DNA of 48,041 nucleotides from a virus (Duplodnaviria > Heunggongvirae > Uroviricota > Caudoviricetes): the IMG/VR virus record IMGVR_UViG_2721755720_000004. The stretch is one strand, 5' to 3'. Every line of letters begins with the position of its first letter. Position 1 is the first letter of the stretch. The notes under the pieces are model-generated. The model saw only the letters and a program-made list of their open reading frames with translations, was not told the DNA's origin and ran no database searches. A program made the position numbers and the translations under genes. Shown here one piece after another: positions 1 to 36,372 of this stretch.

Positions 1-675
1 TTATTCCTGTGCCCAGCCAACCTTATATGCCAGTATCTCATCCGCACTGGTCAGCTTTTCCAGCTCTTTCTTCATCATGCGCTGGCGAACGTGGATTTCC
101 ATCCCTTTCTGAAACATCGCCTTTTCTGCCGCAGCACTGAGCGCGATCAAAGCCTCCGCTGTCATCGGCACGTCATTATTTTCTGCATCTGTCCAGAAAA
201 ATCCCTCCGGCAGTATTCCCGCTTTTGCTGCTGCCACCGACGGCTCAAGACGAACCTGAGTCACCTTGCCGTAGTCCCACTTCCGTCCATTGTACTCAAA
301 CACATACTCCGCATTTTCCATGGCACTTCGCCAGGCATTTATTTCTGCCCCCTTCTGTTCACGTGCTCTGTCAGCCGTCAGCAGGTCGGTGATTTTTTCC
401 CCGTCAAATCCCCAGCGTCCGCTCAGGTCAATTTTCAGGCTTTCCGGTGCGTCCGGCACTTCAGCCACACTCTGGTTCACCGGCCACAACAACTTAATGT
501 CCTTACCATATCCCGTAATCACACCACGGCTGTCATACACCACCTTCAGCGTGTCTTCCGCAAACCTGGAATGGCATTCATACCAGTCCTGACCATCCTC
601 AGATTTCAGGTATATCGCACCCGCCACATCCGGCTCTGCCGGTGTGTAATACGAAAAATTTCTGACATGCATCAT
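1..675 (-). CDS. tfa: tail fibre assembly protein (Tfa-like chaperone)
   Basis: 224-aa ORF at the 3' end of the tail module, directly after the side tail fibre gene; N-terminus MMHVRNF...YLKSEDGQDWYE resembles enterobacterial prophage tail-fibre assembly proteins; stop TAA is at positions 1-3, so the gene is complete. Confidence 0.7.
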   Translation of the reverse strand: MMHVRNFSYYTPAEPDVAGAIYLKSEDGQDWYECHSRFAEDTLKVVYDSRGVITGYGKDIKLLWPVNQSVAEVPDAPESLKIDLSGRWGFDGEKITDLLTADRAREQKGAEINAWRSAMENAEYVFEYNGRKWDYGKVTQVRLEPSVAAAKAGILPEGFFWTDAENNDVPMTAEALIALSAAAEKAMFQKGMEIHVRQRMMKKELEKLTSADEILAYKVGWAQE

Positions 676-896
676 TTTCCCGTGCCCTCTTCCGATACCG
701 GCACCCAGACCGGCATTTTTTCCGTACCGACTCCCCGCTTCATGCCCGCCGGTGCAGCATCCGCTGCAAAAACTTTATACACGGCATAGTCCACCTCTAT
801 ACCATCCACAGGCCAGTTTCCGGTAGTCTCGTAAACGGCACGCAGGGAGGCCGGATAAAACATATTCGCGGACGGTGAAAAAATATAACGCTCCAT
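672..896 (-). CDS. hypothetical small protein between side tail fibre and tfa
   Basis: 74-aa ORF; its stop overlaps the tfa start (ATGA-type coupling). No recognisable motif; could be a separate gene or the N-terminal part of a two-part assembly factor. Confidence 0.35.
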   Translation of the reverse strand: MERYIFSPSANMFYPASLRAVYETTGNWPVDGIEVDYAVYKVFAADAAPAGMKRGVGTEKMPVWVPVSEEGTGK

Positions 897-905
897 AATC
901 CCTCC

Positions 906-2312
906 TCAGTATCCGGTCGCTTCCCAGAAAAACTTACCGGAGGTTCCTCTGACAGTCCTCAGTGTCACCGACTGCAATGACGGTGAGGACAGAGTGTATC
1001 CAGGAATTTTCCCGGGCTCCCCCACCGGAGAAACCTGAACATTCAGCACTGCTGAAGGAAAAACCACCGGAAAACGGATGGAGTGCAGTGATAACGCCTG
1101 ACCATCGGATTCACTTATCACAAGCGTACCCCATTGTCGCATCCGTCCGGTAGCCTCATCACGTTCCCAGCCATTGACAGCCAGACTCGCCGTCGTGGGT
1201 TTATTCCTGGTACCGTAATCCACCCGCCAGTGGTATTTCCGGGTATCGCCATAAACCGTACAGGTACAGACCGTGCCATTAATAAACCCCGTTGCACCGT
1301 ATTCACCAATGGTGACCCGTACAATGGCGGCGTCATATGTTCCCATCACTTCAATGGTACAGCCGCCCAGATTGAGTTTCCCCGGTCCGACATCAGTGAT
1401 GGCCTTATTCATCGCCGCTGGCAGTGATGCCTTCATTATCCAGCAGGTATGGTCAAATGCCCCCTGCTCTTTCAGCCAGGCAACAAACTCTTCTGTCGTC
1501 CACTCACCTGCTCCGGTTGAAATGTCACGCCCGTATGCTCTGGGCACACCAAGCTCACGGATGAAAGCTTCCCTGTCTGTAATATCTTCAAGGCTGCCTG
1601 ATTTTCCCTGAGGCCCGGCAGGCCCCTGTGGTCCCGGATCTCCCTTTGGCCCTGGAGGGCTACCCGGATCTCCTTTCTCTCCCTTTTCACCCCGTTCACC
1701 TCTGGGCCCTGTGTCCCCCCTGTCACCTTTTGGTCCCACAGGACCGGCTTTACCCTCAGGTCCTGTGGCTCCGGTATCCCCTTTGGGGCCCGGAACACCC
1801 TGTGCCCCTGTTGCACCACGCTCACCCTGTGGCCCGGTTGCACCTGTCTCACCTTTCGGTCCCTGTACCCCCTGCGGTCCCGGGTCACCTTTATCACCCT
1901 TCGGCCCCCTGGCATTCTCTGCCCGTTTTTTGGCCTCCTCTGCACTGGCTGCGGAGGCTTCAGCACGCTTCAGTATTTCCGCAGCCACCGCTTCCAGCTC
2001 AGCGAGGGCTTTCGGATAATATGGCGCATCCTCAAAGTCCATCAGGAATTTATTCAGTGTTCCCGGTGCAGAGTCCGCCTTCACCAGAATGTCACCGACG
2101 TATGACGGCATACGCCCTTCTGTGTTCAGGGTCACACGGTACAGCCCCGGTTCAACATCCATACTGTAGCTGCCTGTCTCCCCCGGCTGCCCGTATGCCA
2201 CCGTAGTGACAATCACCGTTTCTGTGGTGCGTCGCGCTTTCAGTTCTATTGTGCATCCCGGTACCGGCTTCCCCGCGCCGTCCTTCAGCACACCCGATAT
2301 TCTGACTGCCAT
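906..2312 (-). CDS. stf: side tail fibre protein with collagen-like Gly-X-Y repeat region
   Basis: 468 aa; N-terminus MAVRISGVLKDGAGKPV resembles lambda Stf; long GPKGDKGDPGPQG...-type collagen triplet run; position after J as in lambda. Confidence 0.85.
   Translation of the reverse strand: MAVRISGVLKDGAGKPVPGCTIELKARRTTETVIVTTVAYGQPGETGSYSMDVEPGLYRVTLNTEGRMPSYVGDILVKADSAPGTLNKFLMDFEDAPYYPKALAELEAVAAEILKRAEASAASAEEAKKRAENARGPKGDKGDPGPQGVQGPKGETGATGPQGERGATGAQGVPGPKGDTGATGPEGKAGPVGPKGDRGDTGPRGERGEKGEKGDPGSPPGPKGDPGPQGPAGPQGKSGSLEDITDREAFIRELGVPRAYGRDISTGAGEWTTEEFVAWLKEQGAFDHTCWIMKASLPAAMNKAITDVGPGKLNLGGCTIEVMGTYDAAIVRVTIGEYGATGFINGTVCTCTVYGDTRKYHWRVDYGTRNKPTTASLAVNGWERDEATGRMRQWGTLVISESDGQALSLHSIRFPVVFPSAVLNVQVSPVGEPGKIPGYTLSSPSLQSVTLRTVRGTSGKFFWEATGY
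1617..1910 (-). repeat. collagen-like Gly-X-Y triplet repeat tract inside stf
   Basis: About 30 consecutive G-X-Y triplets (GPKGDKGDPGPQGVQGPKGETGATGPQGERG...) readable from the translation; the coding DNA is a degenerate 9-bp periodic repeat. Confidence 0.85.
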
Positions 2313-2324
2313 AGATTTTCCCCA

Positions 2325-2360
2325 TAAAAAAACCGCAGTGCCGGTTTCCCGGTCTGCGGT
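2325..2360 (-). terminator. putative intrinsic terminator just upstream of the stf ribosome-binding site
   Basis: On the minus strand a GC-rich hairpin (ACCGCAGACCGGG...CCGGCACTGCGGT) is followed by TTTTTTT; on the plus strand this reads aaaaaaaccgcagtgccggtttcccggtctgcggt. Confidence 0.4.
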
Positions 2361-2688
2361 AAAAATCGTGGTTTACAGGATTAAAAAGGTGCTATCCGGA
2401 ACCGGAATTCACACAGTGAACTGTGGGTGATCCAGATAATGAGCACTACCGTGATACAAATCACGGTGGTTTTTAACGGTTTTTGCGACACAGAACTTGC
2501 TCCTTATTACGGAGAGGCGCTAACCTGCCACTTGCTTAAGGTAGACGGTTCAGGGCCTCGGGTTAACATTGAAGTTGACTCGGGGCCTTTTCACATCAGG
2601 CCTTCAGGTGTTCCCTCCGGCCATCAGCCAAAGGCACCCGCGCATACTGTACGGTTTTATATCCTTCCGGCAATTCCGGTCATCATGT

Positions 2689-5600
2689 TCACGAAATACT
2701 GATACCCGCCGTGGATTTTTTCATGACCACAACCAGTAAATCACTGATGTATGTTGTCGGCGTCCAGTGGTTCACCCCGTTCGACCACACATTAAACGTC
2801 AGGGTCACATGACCCCGTCCTGCCGGCATATCAATGACGGACGAAAACACCCGGGTGACATCCGTTGCCGGCTCATGAAAAATTACCCTTCCGTTCATCT
2901 GCACCTGTAACTGACACGTGGAATACCATGTTGAAGTGTGATCTTTGCTGGACTGGTGCTCATGTCTCGCCCCCCGGAACAGTACCGGTGGAATGATGAT
3001 CTGCCTGTCGAAGCCCTGGTCATCATAAACGGTGACCGTTATCGTACCACTGGCATAACTGTTATTCCGTGGGAAAGCTTTCCCCACTGTTTTGACCAGG
3101 TCACCTTCAATCTGGTTTGCAGACAGTTTTCCCAGAATCCGGCAGTTCTGGTTAATGGTCACATTATTGAGCGTGCCAGAGTTCGCATTAATATTTCCGC
3201 TGATATCCGCATTACGGGCCGTCAGCCTGCCTTCCGGCGTCAGGGAGAACACAGGGGGATTGCCGGACGAGGTGATGCTCACCGCAAACAACCGCTTCAG
3301 GAATACGTCGTTCATGAACAACTGATTCCCCTGCGCCACAAACAGCGGCGTGGTGTTGCCGTTCTCCGGGTTAATCATCGCGATACGGTCAGCCTGCAGC
3401 AGAATATTGCTCAGGGTCTGGCCATCAACATCCTCAATCCCCGCACCAATACCAGCAACATACGGAATACCGTTTTTCGTTTTCTGCACCTTCAGCATGT
3501 ACAGTGCGCTCAGGCTGTCATCCGTCTCCTTCTGCACACGCTGTATCTGCTGTATGGTGACACTCTGGTCTTCCAGGATTTTATTGACCGTCTGTGTGAT
3601 TTCATTGCGGGTTTCTGTGATGGTGGTCTTCATCTCCGCCATCTCATCATCAAGCTGACTGTTATCAATCAGCTCCCACATCCCCTGTGCCAGATGTGTC
3701 TTCCCGATTTCTCCTTTGAAAAAGTCCAGATAACCTTCCGCATCATTGCTCGCCCGTCCGGTTGCTTCAACAAAAACGGATTTACCCACCAGGTTGACGC
3801 TGCGCACATAAAACCAGAAATCTGTCCCTGGCTTAATGTGCGAGCCGGAGACGCTCCACTGGCTGCCGGTCCCCAGATAACGGGCGGACGTTTCCACCTG
3901 TGCCGTGTTCGTGATGCGTTTTTCTGAGAACCAGAATTCAAACTGTACCGTCGGATCATACAACGCAAGACGCGGCACTGCTGTTATCTGGAAATAGCCG
4001 GGGGTCAGTTCAATGGTGGCAGGTGCTGCCGGTGCGTTAATCCGGAACGTGGTGGTGGCAGGCTCCCCCAGCTGGCCATAGCTGTTTATCGCCCTGACCG
4101 TCAGGGTGTATTCCCCCAGCGGCAGGCCACTGAAACGGTGCTCCGTGTCGGCGGTGATGGCGCTGGTCACCAGACGGCTGTTTTCACCGGTTCCGCTGGT
4201 CAGGCGCAGACTGAAGCGCACGCCCTTCACCACCCTCGGCGTGTCCCATTTCGCCGCCGCCAGATACTGACCGTCAGACGCGCTTACCTCCACCGTGAGA
4301 TGCTGTACTGCCGGAGGTGTGACACTGTTCAGCGAACCGGACAACGGCTCAAAGGTGGCACCATTATCCACGATGGCCTCCTTCTCCGGCACATGCTGCA
4401 CCGCCGTGATGGCGAAGGTACCGTCCGCATTTTCGCGGATCGCCACACACCGAAACAGACGGCGGCGCAGTCCCGGCAATGCCAGCCCCCAGATACTGTG
4501 TTCCACCACCCCGTCAGGCAGTGTACTGATCTGTATCCTGTCAGGTGATGGCTGCCCGGTAACATCCACACTCACCGGTTTACCGCTGCCGTTTATCAGA
4601 TTCACCGTGGATGTGCCCTTTTCCGGGAGGGTGACTTCACGGTCAAGCGTCAGGGTCCGGCTGGCGTTGTCGACGGACAGGATCCGCCCGCCGATCACGG
4701 TACCGGCATACGCATTATCACTGATTTCAATGATATCGCCCGGCGTGTGACGCAGTCCCTCCGCCCCCACACTGAAATCCACTGTCTGTGTTTCCAGCAG
4801 TTCGGTCTTTATCACCCACAGGCCTGCCCGGTGAGCCTGACCACGGCTGGTACAGCCGAACGCATCCATCTTCAGAAGATTGCGTCCGTAGCGCAGTATG
4901 GCATCCGGATCCTCCACCAGTTCAGTCGATGTCTGCCAGCCATTCTGCGGATCGGTGTAATTCACCTCAACTGCCGTGTGTCTGTCCTTGAGGGCACTGA
5001 AGCTGTAATGAAAACTTACCCCATCCTCCCCTGTCACCACATTACCGGCGGTATAAGTCCAGACAACATCCGATGGTCTGTCCTGAACAAACGTCAGCGT
5101 CTGTCCGTTCCATACCGGCATACAGCGCATTGCAGAGCAGAAATCCCCCAGCACGTCCCACGCCTTACGCTGTTGTGACAGGTACGCATTAAAGGTCATA
5201 CGGGGTTCTGTACCACCAAAGCCATCCGGAACCGGCTGGTCACAGTACTGTCCGAGGGCATAGAGCGCCCACTTGTCCACATCCGCGGCCCCGAGGCGCT
5301 TTCCCATACCATAACGTGGATGCGTCAGCATATCCCACAGACACCAGGCCGGGTTGTTGCTGTATGCCGGTTTCAGAGTCCCGTCCCAGATACCGCTGTA
5401 TGTACGTTTTTCCGGGTCATAGTTTGACGGCACCTGGATGATGCGCCCGCGGATATGGTAGTTCACCGCCATCTGCTGCCCACCGAACTGCTCCGCATCC
5501 ACCTGCAGCCCCACTATGGCTGTGTTCGGGTAGCTCTGTTTCACATCGATGATTTCGGTGTATGACGACCAGAGCGTTCTGTTCTGCAGCTGGTCCGTGG

Positions 5601-6165
5601 TACTGTCCGCCGTCTCCCTGACTATCCGGATATTAAAGGGACGCTCAGGGAGGTTACCGATTATCACCGACGTCAGGTACTGCGAGGTGGTCTTACCGTT
5701 AATGGTGATATCCTTCTCTGTCACCCAGTGCCCGCTACGCTCAAGCTGAATCAGCAACCGGACAGAAGAGGGATTACGGTCACCCTTTGAGGTCGTCTCC
5801 ACCAGTGACTGAACCCCGAAGGTGACCCGCAGACGGTCAATGTTCGCTGACGTGATGGTGCGCGTCACTGGCTTCGCCTTCGTCACCTCCACGCCCAGTG
5901 CGGTTTCCGCACCAGAAGACTCAAAGCCTTCCGGCGGCGTCTGCTCCTGCTCCCCTGCACGCCAGACGGCTGTCACGCCATGTATCACGGGATTACCGTC
6001 CATATCCGTCAGCGGGGTTTTGTTCACCAGAATACTCTGCAGTCCCTTCACCGGACCTTCAACCGGCCCTTCACCAATGGCATCAATCACGCTCATCATC
6101 TGCGTGGACTTCAGGTTATCCTTCGCCTCACGCGGTGTGTGCCCCTTGCCGCCCCCCTTACCCAT
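2689..6165 (-). CDS. J: tail tip attachment / host specificity protein J
   Basis: 1158 aa; N-terminus [22 protein letters not shown] and overall length match lambda J; located after I as in lambda. Confidence 0.95.
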
Positions 6166-7695: not shown

Positions 7696-8390
7696 TGTGA
7701 AAGTTTATTAATGGAAAGGAAAAAACCGCCGTTTGCCACATTCCCGCGCATTTCACAACCGCGCAGGCACTTGCTGCATTTGTCTTTCCTGATATCCGTG
7801 GTGGGTTTGTCGAACTCGTCAGCCACTGCCGGGCCGTTATACCCACATTCCTCTCCACGGTAATCCCACGGACAGGTATTGGCCAGCATGATACGACCGG
7901 GAAACAGCGCCCCGTCCGTCTCTGCCGGTGTCGCCAGGATAAAGGTCGCCTTTTCGCAGGTCAGCGCTGACAACTGCTCCACCACCCAGCGATCTGTCAA
8001 CTCCTGCTCAGGGTCTGCCTCCGGGTTTCCCGCAACAAAATTCACGGCATCGAGAAAACGGGCGTACACCCGGCGGCGAACCACCGTGCCCCCGACCAGA
8101 CTCTGCAAATCCTCCGCCATGCCGGTGACCAGTCCGAACAGATTCGAGACAATCAGCGACGGTCGCGCACTGCTGCCCTTGCCGTTCATCTCAAAGCCGC
8201 TGCCCTCTATCGGGTATGCCTGATACTGACGCCCCTGCCAGGTGACAGGCTCGCCCTTTTCATTGATTTCACCGCAGAAAAAATAGCGTTCGCCTCCCTG
8301 CGCCTTCAGGTCGATTTCCCACAGCACCACGCGGGCGGACTGCGCTGATTTTACTGCCTCGTTCAGACTCTCCTCATGAATATCCTGCAT
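7692..8390 (-). CDS. L: minor tail protein L
   Basis: Start set at the internal MQDIHEESL to match lambda L length; conserved RYFFC, KGEPVTWQGRQYQ and C-terminal Cys cluster. Confidence 0.9.
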   Translation of the reverse strand: MQDIHEESLNEAVKSAQSARVVLWEIDLKAQGGERYFFCGEINEKGEPVTWQGRQYQAYPIEGSGFEMNGKGSSARPSLIVSNLFGLVTGMAEDLQSLVGGTVVRRRVYARFLDAVNFVAGNPEADPEQELTDRWVVEQLSALTCEKATFILATPAETDGALFPGRIMLANTCPWDYRGEECGYNGPAVADEFDKPTTDIRKDKCSKCLRGCEMRGNVANGGFFLSINKLSQ

Positions 8391-8595
8391 ATGTATCCGC
8401 CCATAAAAAAGGGGCGCAGACGCGCCCCGAACAATACGTTCAGTTTTAAATAAAACCAATAAAGGTAATAACAGAAAATTAAATCAGCATATGCATGGCA
8501 ATTGCTGATGCAGTGACCAATGAAAACTATGTTTTCATTGATACAGACCGCCTGTAAGGGCAGACGGTCTGTATTTATTAACTTATCAGCAATAA

Positions 8596-9759
8596 TCAGA
8601 ACTGATAAGTCATCCCAACAGCAACGATATTATCTGTCGCAATACCGGCTTTCTGGGTAAATTCGCTTTCATCAATCAGGTTAATTTTATAATCAACATA
8701 AGTGGACATATTTTTGTTAAAGTAATAAGTCGCACCGACATCAATATATTTAACCAGATCCTGGTCGCCATGGTTCACACCACCAACCATAACATCCTGT
8801 CCGCGGGACTGCAGATAAGCCAGAGATGGACGCAGGCCAAAATCGAACTGATACTGAGCAACCATTTCAAGGTTTTGTGCTTTATCCGCAACCCCGGTAT
8901 CACCAAAAGTGGTCATATTCTGGGTTTCGGAATAAATTGCAGCCAGATACAGATTGTTTGCATCATATTTAAGGCCAGTCCCCCACATCTCAGCATACTT
9001 ACCTTTTGCAACGCTGCCGGAATCAACGGACACTTCTTTTTCCGTCACATCCCCCGTTAAAGGATCTTTGACTTCAATAGTTTTGCTACCATTCAGGCCA
9101 TTAACCTGCTTACCTGTACGATCTGACTTAGTATACGCTGCCACAAAACCAAAACCATCAAACTCATAGCTGGCAGAGAAACCATATCCATCACCATTAG
9201 ACTTCTGGAGGTCATCTCGCTCATTTTTTCCCTGATACTGGGCTGCAAAGTTAAGACCATCCACCAGTCCGAAGAAATCTGTATTGCGGTAAGTCAGCAC
9301 TCCGGAAGTACGAGCAGTCATGAAGTTATCAGTCTGCGTCCAGCCATCGCCACCAAATTCTGGCAGAACGTCTGTATACGAACCGACATCATAAGCGATA
9401 CCATAATTACGCCCGTAATCAATGCTACCTAAATCAGCGAATTTCAAACCGGCAAATGCCAGACGGGTTTTATTGCCTGCCGTCCCTTCAGACTCGGCCT
9501 TATTACCTGAAAACTGATATTCCCAGTGACCAAAACCTGTCAGTTGATCATTGATCTGAGTCTCACCTTTAAAACCAAGACGTGCATAGGTCTTATCGCC
9601 ATCATCACCTTTATCGTCTGAGAAGTAATGGAGAGCAGTTACACGACCATAAAGATCCAGCTTATTACCATCTTTATTATAAACTTCTGCTGCCTGAGCC
9701 CCCGCAGCAAACATCACTGCCACTGCAACAGCAGAAAGTGCCACTGTCATTTTTTTCAT
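8596..9759 (-). CDS. general-diffusion porin (OmpC/NmpC/Lc-like) carried as cargo inside the tail gene cluster
   Basis: 387 aa with Sec signal peptide [23 protein letters not shown]; then [17 protein letters not shown]...HYFSD and C-terminal ...YVDYKINL...GMTYQF ending in Phe, hallmarks of enterobacterial 16-strand porins; AT-rich flanks. Confidence 0.9.
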
Positions 9760-22968: not shown

Positions 22969-23449
22969 CAAGTAAATCCGGTAATTTATCCCCTGCCCGC
23001 GCACACTGATTTGCGCCCTTTGCAATAAGGGTTTTCAGATGTTCAATATGACGTGGCGTTAAATCCGGGAACTGTCGCTGCATGGATAAAGGGATGGAAT
23101 CAAGCGTACTGGATAACGCCATTGCCAGCTTACTGAGGGCAAAAATACAGAATCCGGTGTCGATCAGTTTTCCTTTTGACACCTCATTTTTTAGCTGTTG
23201 TGTAACGGCCTGTTCTGCTGTCAGTTCCCATCTGGCAATAAGCAATTTCTCTTCATAATCTTCTTCCGGCTCACCATCAGACACATCGTTTTTACTTCTC
23301 CTCAGATACGATATGTAAAAATCACGCCAGGCATCCAGATCCAGTTGCCCTCGCTTATTCGAGACCGGAGCACCCGGTAATTTCTGCAATCTGCGAAGCT
23401 GGCGATCGGTCAGACTTAAATGCCTGGCAACTTCAGTCTGCGTAGCCAC
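22940..23449 (-). CDS. Nu1: terminase small subunit Nu1-like
   Basis: 169 aa with N-terminal helix-turn-helix (TQTEVARHLSLTDRQLRRL); first gene downstream of cosN; overlaps the start of A. Confidence 0.8.
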   Translation of the reverse strand: MATQTEVARHLSLTDRQLRRLQKLPGAPVSNKRGQLDLDAWRDFYISYLRRSKNDVSDGEPEEDYEEKLLIARWELTAEQAVTQQLKNEVSKGKLIDTGFCIFALSKLAMALSSTLDSIPLSMQRQFPDLTPRHIEHLKTLIAKGANQCARAGDKLPDLLDEYIRATTE

Positions 23450-24403: not shown

Positions 24404-24946
24404 ATGAACAGATACTCTAAACTTCAAATTCAATTACATTGGCTGACTCTCGTATTAATAGCTATAGCCTGTGCTGCAATGGAACTTCGAGGTTTGTTTC
24501 CTAAAGGGTCTTCCTCCTATTTGCTTATGAGAGAAACACATTACAATGCTGGTATATTTATTCTTCTACTGATGATAATAAGAGTAATTATCAATAATAA
24601 ATATATAACACCAGCTATTACGCCGCCCCCACCTGCATGGCAAATGATATCAGCCAAATTCATGCAAACCCTGTTATACATATCTTTTTTGGTGTTACCA
24701 GTATCAGGACTTGCAATCATGGTTTTTGGAGGTAAAGCATGGAGCCTTCTGGGGATTGATATTCCCACTTTCGCTAACACCGACGGAGAAGTAAAATCCG
24801 TAGCCAAAACTATTCATGAATCACTTGCAAATATTGGTTATTTATTAATCACACTCCATGCTGGCGCTGCATTAATTCATCATTATATTCAGAAGGACAA
24901 TACACTTGTCAGAATGCTCCCTGAGCACCAGCATGATAAAAAGTGA
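24404..24946 (+). CDS. cytochrome b561 family protein (CybB-like di-haem membrane protein)
   Basis: 180 aa; MNRYSKLQIQLHWLTLVLIA...MELRG and C-terminal HAGAALIHHYIQKDNTLVRMLP closely resemble E. coli CybB; four predicted transmembrane helices with conserved His; AT-rich. Confidence 0.85.
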   Translation: MNRYSKLQIQLHWLTLVLIAIACAAMELRGLFPKGSSSYLLMRETHYNAGIFILLLMIIRVIINNKYITPAITPPPPAWQMISAKFMQTLLYISFLVLPVSGLAIMVFGGKAWSLLGIDIPTFANTDGEVKSVAKTIHESLANIGYLLITLHAGAALIHHYIQKDNTLVRMLPEHQHDKK

Positions 24947-29846: not shown

Positions 29847-29849
29847 GTC

Positions 29850-29876
29850 CATAAAAAAGCCCCTCCGGAGAGGGGC
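29850..29876 (-). terminator. intrinsic terminator (minus strand) about 30 nt downstream of repeat unit 1
   Basis: Minus strand GCCCCTCTCCGGAGGGGC then TTTTTT; 7-bp GC-rich stem with 4-nt loop. Confidence 0.6.
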
Positions 29877-29907
29877 ATACTAGCTATATATCCATTTATC
29901 ATTGGCT

Positions 29908-30037
29908 GCGTGGTGCCGGGTGCCTCCCGGTGAGCTCAGTCTGGTGTCACTGAGCCCGCACATTCTCGATCCAAGTTATCGTCGGAGATAATACCTGATA
30001 CACCAGACGCCCCTCCGCACAGGGGGATTCACCACGC
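29908..30037 (-). ncRNA. candidate structured small RNA, repeat unit 1 of 4
   Basis: 130 nt; terminal 8 bp GCGTGGTG/CACCACGC pair; conserved GCCGGGTGCCTCCCGGTG and AGGGGGATTC motifs; variable centre with its own 9-bp stem (GTCTGGTGT/ACACCAGAC). Strand inferred from flanking terminator and one G-U wobble in unit 3. Confidence 0.45.
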
Positions 30038-30264
30038 GCAGAGAAGGATACTGAACACTATTTTCTCCAGGCAATATGCAATAACATGAAGTGTGAGATG
30101 ACTTACAATTATAAAAAACAGCCTACAGAATACTCCTAAATAAAGCCATATCAAAATGAGTAACACAAAAAGGAACCAGGCAAAAATTTACGAGCAGGTA
30201 TTATCCAGCAACAGTTCAGACGCCATAACTTATTGCCGATAGCTACCATCAATAATTTCTTTCA

Positions 30265-30289
30265 TAAAAAAGCCCCTCTGAAGAGGGGC
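30265..30289 (-). terminator. intrinsic terminator (minus strand) about 30 nt downstream of repeat unit 2
   Basis: Minus strand GCCCCTCTTCAGAGGGGC then TTTTTT. Confidence 0.6.
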
Positions 30290-30316
30290 TGACATACGCA
30301 TTTGCTTTCATCATCA

Positions 30317-30439
30317 ATATGGCGCCGGGTGCCTCCCGGTGCTCCATAACTGATTAATATGGAACGCGGTTTCATTCAGTTGCATTCATGAATAACACTC
30401 TAATCAGTCCGCCCCGCCGCTTAGGGGGATTCGCCATAT
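30317..30439 (-). ncRNA. candidate structured small RNA, repeat unit 2 of 4
   Basis: 123 nt; terminal stem ATATGGCG/CGCCATAT, which covaries with the other units; same conserved 5' and 3' motifs. Confidence 0.45.
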
Positions 30440-30574
30440 AAATTGAAAGTACTGAACACATCTGTCACAAACAATATGCAATTGTATGAATTGTGAGATT
30501 ATTATCAATAACACAAAATTACAGCTCTAGTACATAAACAGCAGATTAAACAAGAACAACAAAAGTATTGAATT

Positions 30575-30698
30575 GCACGGTGCCGGGTGCCTCCCGGTGA
30601 ATTCTGCAATGACCAGACAGAATCCGCAACTTGCTACTAACGCTAATGCGACCAAGCCTCAGTCATTATGCCCCTCCGCACAGGGGGATTCACCATGC
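30575..30698 (-). ncRNA. candidate structured small RNA, repeat unit 3 of 4
   Basis: 124 nt; terminal stem GCACGGTG/CACCATGC (one C-A on the plus strand, G-U on the minus strand); conserved motifs present; no canonical terminator nearby. Confidence 0.35.
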
Positions 30699-30826
30699 GC
30701 TAAAAAAATACAAAACGTCACGTCACTCTGACAATACGAAGCACCATAAAATGTGAGTTATTTATCAATTCTTAATTCTGGTTACAGGAATATTCCGAAT
30801 CAAATCTTTAAAAAAAGAAATTCAAA

Positions 30827-30931
30827 TGCATGGTGCCGGGTGCCTCCCGGTGAACAGACCGTCCGTGATACCAGTCGGCAACACAGGAAATTAATGGTAT
30901 CACCCCACCGCACAGGGGGATTCACCATGCA
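30827..30931 (-). ncRNA. candidate structured small RNA, repeat unit 4 of 4
   Basis: 105 nt; 9-bp terminal stem TGCATGGTG/CACCATGCA; internal 9-bp stem GTGATACCA/TGGTATCAC; conserved motifs present. Confidence 0.35.
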
Positions 30932-31319
30932 GGCGTTTTCTTAGCAAACTAACTGCGCGCCCGGCAACTCCCAACCACATAAAACGTGGAGTTTGTAGCA
31001 TTTATGCACATAACTCACAGGGGTTATCTTAAAAAAAGCTGACCATGCTTCCCCGGCAACGCAATAACTTTATTCCCTGAAGTGGCATCCCCCGTATTGT
31101 CGGCAGGCTCAAAAAGGAGCCAGTCATCTGAGGATGACTGGAAAAAGGAAAGATAAAAAATTATTCATCATACAACCTTCGTTGCAGGGGAGAATCCTGC
31201 GGTGCAGCAACATACAAAAACATAAGCCAACTAACAATATGCAGGCATAGCATTTTCGGATTTTGTTATATGGCACGGTAACTGAATGCTTACCTGATAT
31301 ACAGTCCGGTATAAAGTTG

Positions 31320-31342
31320 CAAAAAACCGCCAGTTAAGGCGG
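31320..31342 (-). terminator. putative intrinsic terminator (minus strand) downstream of the tRNA pair
   Basis: Minus strand GCCGCCTTAACTGGCGG then TTTTTTG. Confidence 0.45.
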
Positions 31343-31585
31343 CATTCAAACAGACAACAGGATTTTTTCGTAATTTTAACAACTTCGGGGTGGCGCATCG
31401 TCAGCCCCTGTCAGGAAGTACCAGAACTCCCTCCAACAATATCCCCCCATTCAGCGTTATCAAACACAGCACAGAAACTATCAATGTTTGCTGTTACAGT
31501 TAGGGAAAAAACGATAAATACGCCACAGGCTCTTTTTGCTGTGAAGTAAAAACTGATCTGAAAGACTGCTCATCATTTATTTTGC

Positions 31586-31663
31586 TGGACCGTCACCGGG
31601 GACTCGAACCCCGCATTTTCAACATAAAAAGGTTGATGCTCTTTCCTGATGAGCTAGTGACGG
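31586..31663 (-). tRNA. tRNA-like gene with an 8-nt anticodon loop (identity undetermined)
   Basis: Hand fold: acceptor CCGTCAC/GTGACGG (7 bp), U8-A9, D-stem GCTC/GAGC, anticodon stem TCAAC/GTTGA closing loop CTTTTTAT (8 nt), T-arm CGGGG-TTCGAGT-CCCCG, encoded CCA. Needs tRNAscan-SE / ARAGORN. Confidence 0.5.
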
Positions 31664-31665
31664 CA

Positions 31666-31740
31666 TGGTTGCCTTGCTGGATTTGAACCAGCGACCTGGC
31701 GATTATGAGTCTCTCGCTCTCACCACTGAGCTAAAGGGCC
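31666..31740 (-). tRNA. tRNA-like gene with CAU anticodon (Ile2/Met type), acceptor and anticodon stems imperfect
   Basis: GGCCCTT-TA-GCTC-AGTGGTGA-GAGC...CTCATAA...GCTGG-TTCAAAT-CCAGC-AAGGCAACCA; resembles E. coli ileX in D and T arms, but the acceptor stem has 3 mismatches and the anticodon stem 2. Confidence 0.5.
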
Positions 31741-31780
31741 GGGAACAGAATAATAATGGTGCGTAATTAATTCTGCAATC

Positions 31781-33304: not shown

Positions 33305-33335
33305 TCATAAAAAACCCGCCAGGCGGCGGGGTGTA
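33305..33335 (-). terminator. tR'-like intrinsic terminator downstream of the late promoter
   Basis: Minus strand CCCGCCGCCTGGCGGG then TTTTTTAT, about 45-70 nt downstream of the promoter-like element, as for the lambda pR'-tR' short transcript. Confidence 0.55.
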
Positions 33336-33412: not shown

Positions 33413-34234
33413 CTATCGCGTTACCCTCTTCAACTGCCACTCTGCCCATGCCTCTGCAATATCAAACCGGACCACCAGCGTGTCATAGAATTGCTTAACT
33501 GTTTTTTCCCATGAAGCGCGTGTTATCTGATTTGTCACCTCACATATGGCATCAAATGCCTCCGTTGAAGGTAATCTTTCATAGCCACGCCCACCACAAC
33601 GCTGACAGTTTCTGAAAACCGGCATACCTCGTTTTTCAGACTCTTCACGATGAATGGCAACACCGCGCCCACGGCAATCTTTACAGGCAGTGGAGACCTC
33701 CCCCTTTCCACCACACTCCGGACAGGCAACTTTTACCACCTCCCTGACTTTTTTCCATTCCTCCCAGTAAGACGGATACACGCCTTTTGTACACTTTGCC
33801 CATACTGGCGGCTTACCATCCGGATACTGAATCTTGTTTGTAAAAATCTCGCTTTCAATAAATTTTTTTCCGTGACAGCATGGGCACTGTTTTTTGCTCG
33901 CCGCGCTCCGGGCATAATCCTCAAACGCATACGAAGCCATAATGCGCATCACTACCGGTTTTATTTCTGCCGGAAGTTTTCTTAACGCTGCCACGCGATC
34001 ACACCGACTGAGAGCGTATTCTGCCAGCAGTTCTGTTGCCCGCTCCCTGTCATTCATACTGATGCCCATTTTCCCAAGGAACGCAGAAAACCCCATCTCA
34101 GCCCGATTCTGTGTCATGCCCTGCGCTGCCATCACATCAGTGATACTCAGCGCATCTTTTGACGTTGAGGCCGATGCATCCGTCAGACCCGGTGATTTTG
34201 GGGAATAGTATTTTGGTAAATCTTCCAGTTTCAT
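33413..34234 (-). CDS. putative late-gene antiterminator (Q-like), DnaJ-type zinc-finger protein
   Basis: 273 aa with four CxxCxGxG-like motifs (CPCCHGKK, CPECGGKG, CKDCRGRG, CQRCGGRG); called Q-like by position (after the nin/rusA region, directly upstream of a pR'/tR'-like pair), not by confident sequence match. Confidence 0.5.
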   Translation of the reverse strand: MKLEDLPKYYSPKSPGLTDASASTSKDALSITDVMAAQGMTQNRAEMGFSAFLGKMGISMNDRERATELLAEYALSRCDRVAALRKLPAEIKPVVMRIMASYAFEDYARSAASKKQCPCCHGKKFIESEIFTNKIQYPDGKPPVWAKCTKGVYPSYWEEWKKVREVVKVACPECGGKGEVSTACKDCRGRGVAIHREESEKRGMPVFRNCQRCGGRGYERLPSTEAFDAICEVTNQITRASWEKTVKQFYDTLVVRFDIAEAWAEWQLKRVTR

Positions 34235-35971: not shown

Positions 35972-36127
35972 TTACTCCTCAGGTTCGTAGACTGTGAAAA
36001 CAGCGACCTCCGTCTGGCCGGTTCGGATTCGTACCTCGCAGAGGTCTTTCCTCGTTACCAGTGCCGTCACTATGACGGTTAAACAGATGACGATCAGGGC
36101 GATTAACGTCGCCTTTTGCTGCTTCAT
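35972..36127 (-). CDS. hok: Hok/Gef-family type I toxin
   Basis: 51 aa MKQQKATLIALIVICLTVIVTALVTRKDLCEVRIRTGQTEVAVFTVYEPEE, near-identical to the Hok/Gef/RelF family consensus; the in-frame upstream extension in the ORF track is not used. Confidence 0.85.
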   Translation of the reverse strand: MKQQKATLIALIVICLTVIVTALVTRKDLCEVRIRTGQTEVAVFTVYEPEE

Positions 36128-36372
36128 AGCCTGCTTCTCCTTGCCTTTCGGCACGTAAGAGGCTAACCTACATTTGTGAGACATAGATTGGGCCTCAGAT
36201 TAATGTTAAGCGTCTTGCAGGACGCGTTATGTTAACTGGGGCTTTTCTCTGTCTGCCTTACGGCGGCATGCCCGAGGCAGACAGCCTCAAGCACCCGCAG
36301 CAATTCTACTTAACTCTCGCTTTACAGCAAACCGTTTTTGCCCAATATGGGAATTCCCATATCGCAATGAAT

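Follow-up and report, generated by a model that had tools for sequence, protein, structure and literature searches.

Does a tRNA gene with one nucleotide too many in its anticodon loop encode a frameshift suppressor, or is it a tRNA in decay? The question is raised by a gene in a 48,041-nucleotide stretch of viral DNA (here called the window), for which a preliminary description had named both readings. The window is a lambdoid prophage adjoining potC. Over 34 kb it matches a prophage of Escherichia coli M3 at 99.5% identity, and the prophage closest to it is that of E. coli CI5.

Structure of the tRNA gene

The gene lies on the minus strand, which the preliminary description had not given, and comprises the following features.

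31586..31663, minus strand: tRNA gene of 78 nt with an argN-type body and encoded CCA (ARAGORN, Rfam and MFE fold)
31624..31631, minus strand: anticodon loop CUUUUUAT, numbered C32 U33 UUUU A37 U38 (sibling alignments and Rfam alignment)

Read on the minus strand, positions 31586-31663 are CCGTCAC-TA-GCTC-ATCAGGAAA-GAGC-A-TCAAC-CTTTTTAT-GTTGA-AAATG-CGGGG-TTCGAGT-CCCCG-GTGACGG-T-CCA. ARAGORN returned exactly this interval on this strand as "tRNA-???" with the four-base anticodon tttt. The Rfam model RF00005 gave the gene 47.3 bits, where the gathering score is 29 bits, with an E value of 4e-7 over the whole window; this score is higher than that of some relatives with seven-nucleotide loops. 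In the Rfam alignment the gene covers model positions 1-71 with all stems paired and a single base inserted in the anticodon loop. The MFE fold is a cloverleaf of -27.5 kcal/mol (z = -3.06), matched by one of 200 shuffled sequences. Standard pairing was found at all 21 stem pairs, and the conserved U8, A14, G18G19, A21, T54-T55-C56 and A58 are present together with the 3' CCA, the only departures from the norm being G46A and the loop insertion. Neither stem pairing nor core nucleotides have been lost in the way that would mark a pseudogene.

The anticodon loop, CUUUUUAU, has eight nucleotides instead of the usual seven. An alternative register with a seven-nucleotide loop was considered and rejected, since an eight-nucleotide loop on a 5-bp stem results from the Rfam alignment as well as from the MFE fold, and the one loop insertion in the Rfam alignment leaves no such register. 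The coordinates originally proposed for the gene were exact at both ends, and its cloverleaf with perfect stems, T-loop TTCGAGT and encoded CCA was borne out by the sequence, Rfam and the fold. The ARAGORN check that had been suggested returned a four-base anticodon and no seven-nucleotide loop, which together with the single Rfam insertion upholds the eight-nucleotide loop.

The amino acid identity of the gene is less straightforward than its structure. Identical copies in M3 and CI5 are labelled "tRNA-Lys" by RefSeq/PGAP, a label that rests on the anticodon only. E. coli tRNA-Lys, the substrate of LysRS, is identified by anticodon nucleotides U34, U35 and U36 together with discriminator A73. 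The eight-nucleotide-loop tRNA has U73 as its discriminator, as in argN, and its run of anticodon U's sits inside an enlarged loop; A20 in its D-loop is presumably an ArgRS element.

An argN-type body with changing anticodons

The preliminary description had proposed a comparison with ileZ, argN and argO of Stx phages, and this was apt: the gene has an argN body and stands directly after an ileZ homologue. The two-tRNA stretch of the window shares about 81% identity with the ileZ-argN genes found in PA8 and other Stx phages, and gene-by-gene alignment showed that the D arm, the T arm, U73 and CCA are common to argN and the eight-nucleotide-loop tRNA. Across the argN-type family, 5 of the 21 stem pairs covary, with double changes that keep the pairing. 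The Arg anticodon (UCG/UCU) of the argN class is replaced by UUUU in the window and by UUU in its siblings. In all, argN-type bodies across prophages were found with UCG or UCU (Arg), with UUU in CCUUUAA or CUUUUAU, and with UUUU in CUUUUUAU; the loops around UUU in the family are CCUUUAA, UCUUUAA, CUUUUAU and CUUUUUAU. U33 is near-universal in anticodon loops. The CCUUUAA loop, with its unusual C33, is the dominant form (74 of 88 IMG/VR hits). Among 5,426 complete E. coli genomes, 783 contain it, at 838 places in all, and Thr(UGU) and Gly(UCC) usually come after it. One phage tRNA body has thus been re-anticodoned several times (UCG, UCU, UUU with C33, UUU with U38, and UUUU), which bears on the question of why temperate phages carry tRNAs.

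Two further members of the family were observed. The dominant lambdoid cassette is ileZ(CAU)-Lys(UUU)-Thr(UGU)-Gly(UCC), present at positions 2017-2326 of locus L004, in L005, L001, L133 and L134 and at about 100 IMG/VR loci; its "Lys" gene has the argN-type body, the CCUUUAA loop and an A51:C63 mismatch. An unannotated 82-nt relative occurs in about 15 genomes (positions 6001-6082 of L012 from E. coli M8; hits H93-H107). It keeps the acceptor and T arms, has a rearranged anticodon arm, is called Val(aac) by ARAGORN and may be another remodelled or decayed family member.

Origin of the extra nucleotide

The nearest relatives of the gene are 77-nt tRNA-Lys(UUU) genes with the loop CTTTTAT. These are present in about 14 complete E. 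coli genomes (records at 94.9-96.2%), including 95-3322, ECOR29 and 8178, and in contigs L015, L136 and L142. The gene in the window is identical to this sibling at 75 of 78 positions, the differences being one T and variable-loop positions 44 and 46, where the sibling has G44 and G46 and the gene in the window has A at both. The comparison of CTTTTAT (95-3322 and others) with CTTTTTAT reveals the kind of insertion that is found in suf-type suppressors, and because the two loops differ by one T, the eight-nucleotide loop is a single-T expansion of the T4 run in a canonical tRNA-Lys(UUU) loop. Alignment to a known tRNA with a simple one-nucleotide insertion had been named beforehand as a test that would mark a pseudogene, and such an alignment was found in the CTTTTAT siblings plus one T. 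Taken by itself, the insertion is no proof of a pseudogene, because suppressors obtained in the laboratory arise likewise and the body is intact here.

Among the seven-nucleotide alleles, that of E. coli A8 (positions 6001-6077 of L011) has T54 changed to G at a universally conserved T-loop position, which suggests that the sublineage as a whole may be weakly constrained.

Carriers and spread of the eight-nucleotide allele

The allele was found in five complete genomes (E. coli M1, M3, CI5, PG20180057 and A39) and one metagenome/IMG-VR contig (L094, identical with L137), the only further carrier that scans of viral, metagenome and GTDB-representative sequences gave. The copies in M1, M3 and CI5 are identical, those of PG20180057 and the metagenome contig have the variable loop GAATG, and that of A39 has GAATG and two further changes. 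In every carrier the allele is linked to G46A and to lesions in the neighbouring ileZ-like gene. The carriers came from mice, from a human and from an Australian rock rat. Three metagenome matches of 23 nt (L139-L141) and a match in L135 have no tRNA inside and were taken as chance.

A synthetic +T version of the host lysT had no exact match among 32,020 host tRNA-Lys copies in the 5,426 genomes, and a synthetic +T version of the C33 sister lineage had none among its 838 copies in the same genomes. Since +T is absent from both sets, the insertion appears to be neither common nor trivially recurrent. Among the other tRNAs of 143 fetched related loci, 0 of 515 had a loop of other than seven nucleotides.

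Given that the difference is one base inside a T-run, and that homopolymer indels occur at G-runs in the A39 assembly, the eight-nucleotide loop might be suspected to be a sequencing or assembly artefact. The probability of this is practically negligible, as the T5 run is repeated in six independent assemblies and a metagenome contig, is always accompanied by G46A and three ileZ lesions, and is found in none of about 33,000 comparable T4 loops. The constant linkage to G46A and the ileZ changes argues against an assembly error and would most simply be explained by a single origin of the allele. In A39 itself (L009), single-G insertions were seen at two G-runs in the DUF6645 gene (7762-9698), and the tRNA (6001-6080) has CC changed to CCC at its 3' end. 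All of these are probably sequencing errors at homopolymers, and the apparent loss of CCA in this strain is to be taken cautiously.

Between carriers, the upstream methylase diverges by up to 12%, while the cassette is 98.7-100% identical and the downstream non-coding flank 97.6-99.9% identical. With methylases so far apart and cassettes 0-1.3% apart, the cassette has moved by recombination into different phage backgrounds. Its conservation does not exceed that of the non-coding flank.

The sublineage of seven- and eight-nucleotide alleles comes mostly from rodent isolates (hits H71-H89). Its mouse strains are M1, M3, PG20180057, 3-72, 8178, DEF10, DEF2, FEA3 and A8, and other rodent strains are A39 from Zyzomys and ECOR29 from a kangaroo rat.

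Genomic setting of the cassette

Annotations of Q, the methyltransferase and the gene order were taken from the M3 and CI5 prophages. The late-transcription order begins with hokD/sok, DUF968, RusA, the Q antiterminator, a tR'-like terminator, a small ORF and a DNA methyltransferase, and continues with tRNA(CAT), the eight-nucleotide-loop tRNA, four STnc100-like sRNA copies, DUF6645 (NanS-like), holin and lysozyme. The gene therefore has the location of a late-region tRNA cassette, between the Q antiterminator/methylase and the lysis genes and directly after ileZ(CAU), and the slot corresponds to that of ileZ-argN-argO-stxAB in Stx phages (phage PA8 annotation). The features around it are listed here.

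About 33413-34234: Q antiterminator gene, with the tR'-like terminator just downstream (M3 prophage annotation)
33315..33330, minus strand: tR'-like terminator CCCGCCGCCTGGCGGG followed by TTTTTT (consensus scan)
31750..31778, minus strand: candidate promoter of the cassette, TTGCAG-17 nt-TATTAT, its end 10 nt short of the 5' end of ileZ (by eye)
31666..31740, minus strand: ileZ-like tRNA(CAT), apparent pseudogene, immediately upstream of the eight-nucleotide-loop tRNA
31326..31343, minus strand: terminator-like hairpin GCCGCCTTAACTGGCGGT followed by TTTTTT (consensus match only)

From the position of the tR'-like terminator just downstream of Q, the cassette belongs to the Q-dependent late transcription unit. 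The TTGCAG-17-TATTAT sequence is a possible promoter of the cassette itself: its TTGCA and TTAT.AT columns are invariant in 12 of 12 aligned cassettes, Stx phage PA8 included, and the consensus promoter scan, for which it falls below the threshold, did not list it. The hairpin, located about 240 nt downstream of the eight-nucleotide-loop tRNA, may be the end of the cassette transcript.

Several other features of the prophage were recorded. The four tandem STnc100-like sRNA copies (29847-30960, minus strand; 76.6-132.9 bits) separate the tRNA cassette from the DUF6645/NanS-like gene and fill the slot of stxAB in Stx phages such as PA8. Among the cargo genes, the sok/hokD locus is at 36122-36296 on the minus strand (Rfam, 116 bits). 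By the M3 annotation, the cargo also includes an OmpC-like porin gene inside the tail block (about 8596-9759, minus strand), a cytochrome b gene near the lysis genes (about 24404-24946, plus strand) and, close to the tail fibre gene, a second gene of the Hok/Gef family (about 2381-2491, minus strand).

Decay of the ileZ partner and relaxed constraint

The ileZ-like tRNA upstream has a C29-to-A mismatch in the anticodon stem, and its 3' acceptor strand is changed from AAGGGCCACCA to AAGGCAACCA (one G deleted and one C changed to A), so that only four acceptor pairs are kept. These three lesions are common to the window and all five eight-nucleotide loci examined. Rfam aligned the gene over model positions 4-67 only, with two non-standard pairs and the acceptor stem unaligned, and its MFE fold is not a cloverleaf (z = -0.30), compared with z = -3.52 for the intact ileZ of 95-3322. 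The gene looks like a pseudogene, and PGAP labels it tRNA-Ile in M3 and CI5. The plain RefSeq labels tRNA-Lys and tRNA-Ile thus hide the anomalies of both genes.

Changes in the cassette were polarised with the outgroups EC107, IGC and PA8. In the eight-nucleotide lineage, 5-6 changes within the 158-nt cassette are derived; four of them affect structure or the anticodon loop, and one derived change removes G46 of the usual C13-G22-G46 triple. In the seven-nucleotide lineage ileZ is intact and there are two derived cassette changes, which are compensatory (A31-T39 to G31-C39). Structure-hitting changes in the one lineage against compensatory changes in the other are the signature of relaxed constraint on the cassette in the eight-nucleotide lineage. 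At the locus as a whole, the relaxed constraint expected around a pseudogene is seen in the broken ileZ and in a cassette that is conserved no more than its flank.

That ileZ has decayed is no proof of missing constraint on the Lys gene, and several observations speak against decay of the latter. Its three changes all lie outside stems, for which we estimate a neutral chance of about 0.1; its body is flawless and CCA is retained; and the allele has persisted, gained linked substitutions and recombined among methylase alleles up to 12% apart.

Search for +1 frameshift targets

We considered whether the gene may be a working natural quadruplet decoder, a +1 tRNA that would be charged by LysRS, shift at AAA-A and be used in late expression. 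The laboratory suppressors sufD, sufB2 and sufJ provide the model for such a +1 shift, and a 2002 study by O'Connor, going by its title, reportedly describes tRNA-Lys loop insertions that promote CAAA quadruplet decoding. The gene resembles the classical suppressors in its origin, one anticodon base having been inserted in an intact tRNA. In addition, UUUU is complementary to AAAA, the allele is kept in several strains and backgrounds, and the gene is inside the Q-dependent late unit.

A tRNA of this kind would be expected to have a target. The ORFs of the window contain 503 AAA codons and 162 in-frame AAA-A sites, and the median open +1 frame after AAA-A is 16 codons, the same as at all (control) sites. 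Long +1 extensions after AAA-A in the window ORFs were found only at the terS/terL and xis/int overlaps. An in-frame AAA-A near the end of terS (about 23033-23035, minus strand) would lead by a +1 shift into the terL frame, and another near the end of xis (about 46940, plus strand) into the int frame; both were interpreted as ordinary overlapping-gene geometry and not as programmed sites. PGAP assigned no frameshift flags in the 99.5%-identical M3 prophage. The DUF6645 (esterase) gene annotated as "frameshifted" in A39 was rejected as a suppressor target, its indels being at G-runs. Overall, no gene needing a +1 shift at AAA-A was found in the window ORFs or the M3 prophage annotation.

The quadruplet decoder is consequently left with no meaningful +1 frame beyond the gene overlaps and with no split gene to restore, and an efficient shifter would harm the phage's own proteins at the many AAA and AAA-A sites. 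Its partner tRNA has decayed, and its discriminator is U73 and not the A73 of E. coli tRNA-Lys. The experimental precedents are also discouraging. When single-base anticodon insertions were made in E. coli tRNAs, 7 of 20 XYZZ designs decoded the quadruplet, and the Lys scaffold was not among the functional ones (PMC9094753). Natural enlarged-loop tRNAs, some of them in a phage, are described in PMC5009743 as rare and as having no known frameshifting role. On balance we regard a working quadruplet decoder as quite unlikely.

Other possible functions

By analogy with other phage tRNAs, the gene may instead supply an anti-defence tRNA-Lys, with an altered arm that would escape PrrC, RloC and the PARIS nuclease AriB and either restore Lys decoding or act as a decoy. 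RloC, like PrrC and AriB, is an anticodon nuclease that depletes tRNA-Lys(UUU). PrrC cuts just 5' of the wobble base, so that C33 or an extra U would sit at its cut point. Codon supply hardly accounts for a Lys anticodon on an Arg-type body, as the host has a median of six tRNA-Lys genes. Moreover, UUU is constant across the family and positions 32, 33 and 38 are variable, the pattern proposed for phage tRNAs that evade nucleases such as PrrC, whose target is tRNA-Lys(UUU) (PMC10264068). AriB requires U36-A-A-U-C|A41, and a change of U39 abolishes cleavage (PMC12409363). The arm of the eight-nucleotide-loop tRNA reads U36-A-U-G-U-U, compared with U36-A-A-U-C-A in host tRNA-Lys, and thus differs from the host AriB site, with the anticodon itself enlarged.

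An anti-defence role would, however, fit the seven-nucleotide and C33 forms at least equally well; it leaves the eighth nucleotide unexplained, and that nucleotide should impair decoding. The decay of ileZ in the eight-nucleotide lineage points to relaxed constraint, and the Thr(UGU) arm of the cassette is host-like, which argues against a general anti-PARIS kit. We therefore consider an anti-defence tRNA-Lys to be unlikely, if somewhat less so than the quadruplet decoder. With regard to the dominant cassette, it carries both Lys(UUU) and Thr(UGU), the two prime AriB (PARIS) targets; the idea that it is an anti-PARIS cassette was weakened by the same host-like Thr(UGU) arm.

The gene may also encode an ordinary in-frame Lys tRNA, in which three of the four U's would pair with AAA/AAG and which would be equivalent to its seven-nucleotide sibling. 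In line with this, the gene keeps its body, U33, the U36-A37 neighbourhood and CCA. The seven-nucleotide loop is almost universal, though, with deviations in 0 of 515 other tRNAs and 0 of 32,020 host tRNA-Lys copies, which argues that an eighth nucleotide has a real cost; we regard an ordinary tRNA as very unlikely.

Taking the more ambitious possibilities together, we likewise give little credence to the view that this is a wild, polymorphic, functional four-base-anticodon tRNA-Lys, charged by LysRS, expressed late, and either shifting +1 at AAA-A or serving as a nuclease-proof tRNA or decoy, and rate it no higher than the quadruplet decoder. If active, the gene would represent a rare natural expanded-anticodon tRNA in a well-studied bacterium. 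The isogenic seven-nucleotide alleles in sister prophages provide a built-in control, so that quadruplet decoding or nuclease evasion could be put to a direct test in E. coli.

A probable slippage allele in a decaying cassette

The most probable explanation, in which we place somewhat better than even confidence, is that the gene carries a slippage allele that is tolerated, probably poorly functional, and part of a decaying two-tRNA cassette, and that it is not a purpose-built suppressor. We favor a tolerated defect because the allele differs by one base from its siblings, its partner is broken in every carrier, the cassette lacks excess conservation, and no target was found in the prophage. 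Of the two readings named in the preliminary description, frameshift suppressor or decaying pseudo-tRNA, the balance accordingly tilts to decay on account of the +T insertion, the broken ileZ and the lack of a +1 target in the prophage, and the suppressor reading keeps a share.

The proposed course of events is as follows. An argN-type (Arg) body would have had its anticodon switched, giving rise to the tRNA-Lys(UUU) of lambdoid prophages. One T would then have been added to the T4 run spanning U33-U36, most simply by replication slippage, turning the canonical CUUUUAU into CUUUUUAU. This insertion probably occurred once, in a cassette lineage on which constraint had relaxed beforehand or relaxed afterwards, and the allele may since then have been a passenger of otherwise intact phages recombining among E. 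coli strains. Transcription of the RNA probably continues, as part of the late pR' transcript or from the promoter-like sequence upstream, and so, probably, does its processing, because the body is intact. It would be a poor decoder, outcompeted by the products of the host's roughly six tRNA-Lys genes, and any +1 slippage at AAA-A would be a low-level side effect and not a selected function.

Comparison with known systems

The gene belongs to two known kinds, the natural expanded-loop tRNAs and the lambdoid late-region tRNA cassette; a literature search found nothing on this allele or on eight-nucleotide loops in prophage tRNAs.

Among the closest systems is the seven-nucleotide sibling (95-3322, ECOR29 and 8178), which has the same cassette position and a downstream region 96.5-98% identical to that of the window. 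The ileZ of the sibling is intact with a compensatory stem change, whereas that of the window is broken. The argN gene of Stx phages such as PA8 occupies the same slot after Q, the methylase and ileZ(CAU) and upstream of the lysis genes, and shares its body with the tRNA of the window (D arm, T arm, U73 and CCA). It differs in having UCG in a seven-nucleotide loop rather than UUUU in an eight-nucleotide loop. The Stx-phage cassette also includes argO and stxAB, while the window is without argO and has the four STnc100-like sRNA copies at the stxAB slot, and the broken ileZ partner of the window is unlike that of the Stx-phage argN cassette.

The suf-type suppressors (sufD, Gly-GGGG; sufA/sufB, Pro-CCCN; sufJ, Thr; sufG, Gln-CAAA) share with the gene a one-nucleotide anticodon insertion, an eight-nucleotide loop and a repeated base. 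Those suppressors were selected on a known +1 mutation and their activity was demonstrated, whereas the tRNA of the window is known from its sequence and no target was found for it in the prophage. The natural enlarged-loop tRNAs covered in PMC5009743 (yeast mitochondrial, phage and glass-sponge mitochondrial tRNA-Gly) are likewise rare departures from seven nucleotides, found in genomes that otherwise use triplet decoding. Unlike those examples, the eight-nucleotide allele of the window is polymorphic in a species-level prophage population, and the canonical allele is still circulating, which would mark the eight-nucleotide allele as recent.

Finally, phage T5's AriB-insensitive tRNA-Lys(UUU) is similarly phage-borne, with a Lys-type anticodon and an arm that differs from that of the host at the AriB site (PMC12409363). 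The T5 tRNA-Lys has a normal seven-nucleotide loop and is supported by experiment, whereas the window's tRNA is a sequence-level prediction with an eighth base that the T5 model does not explain.
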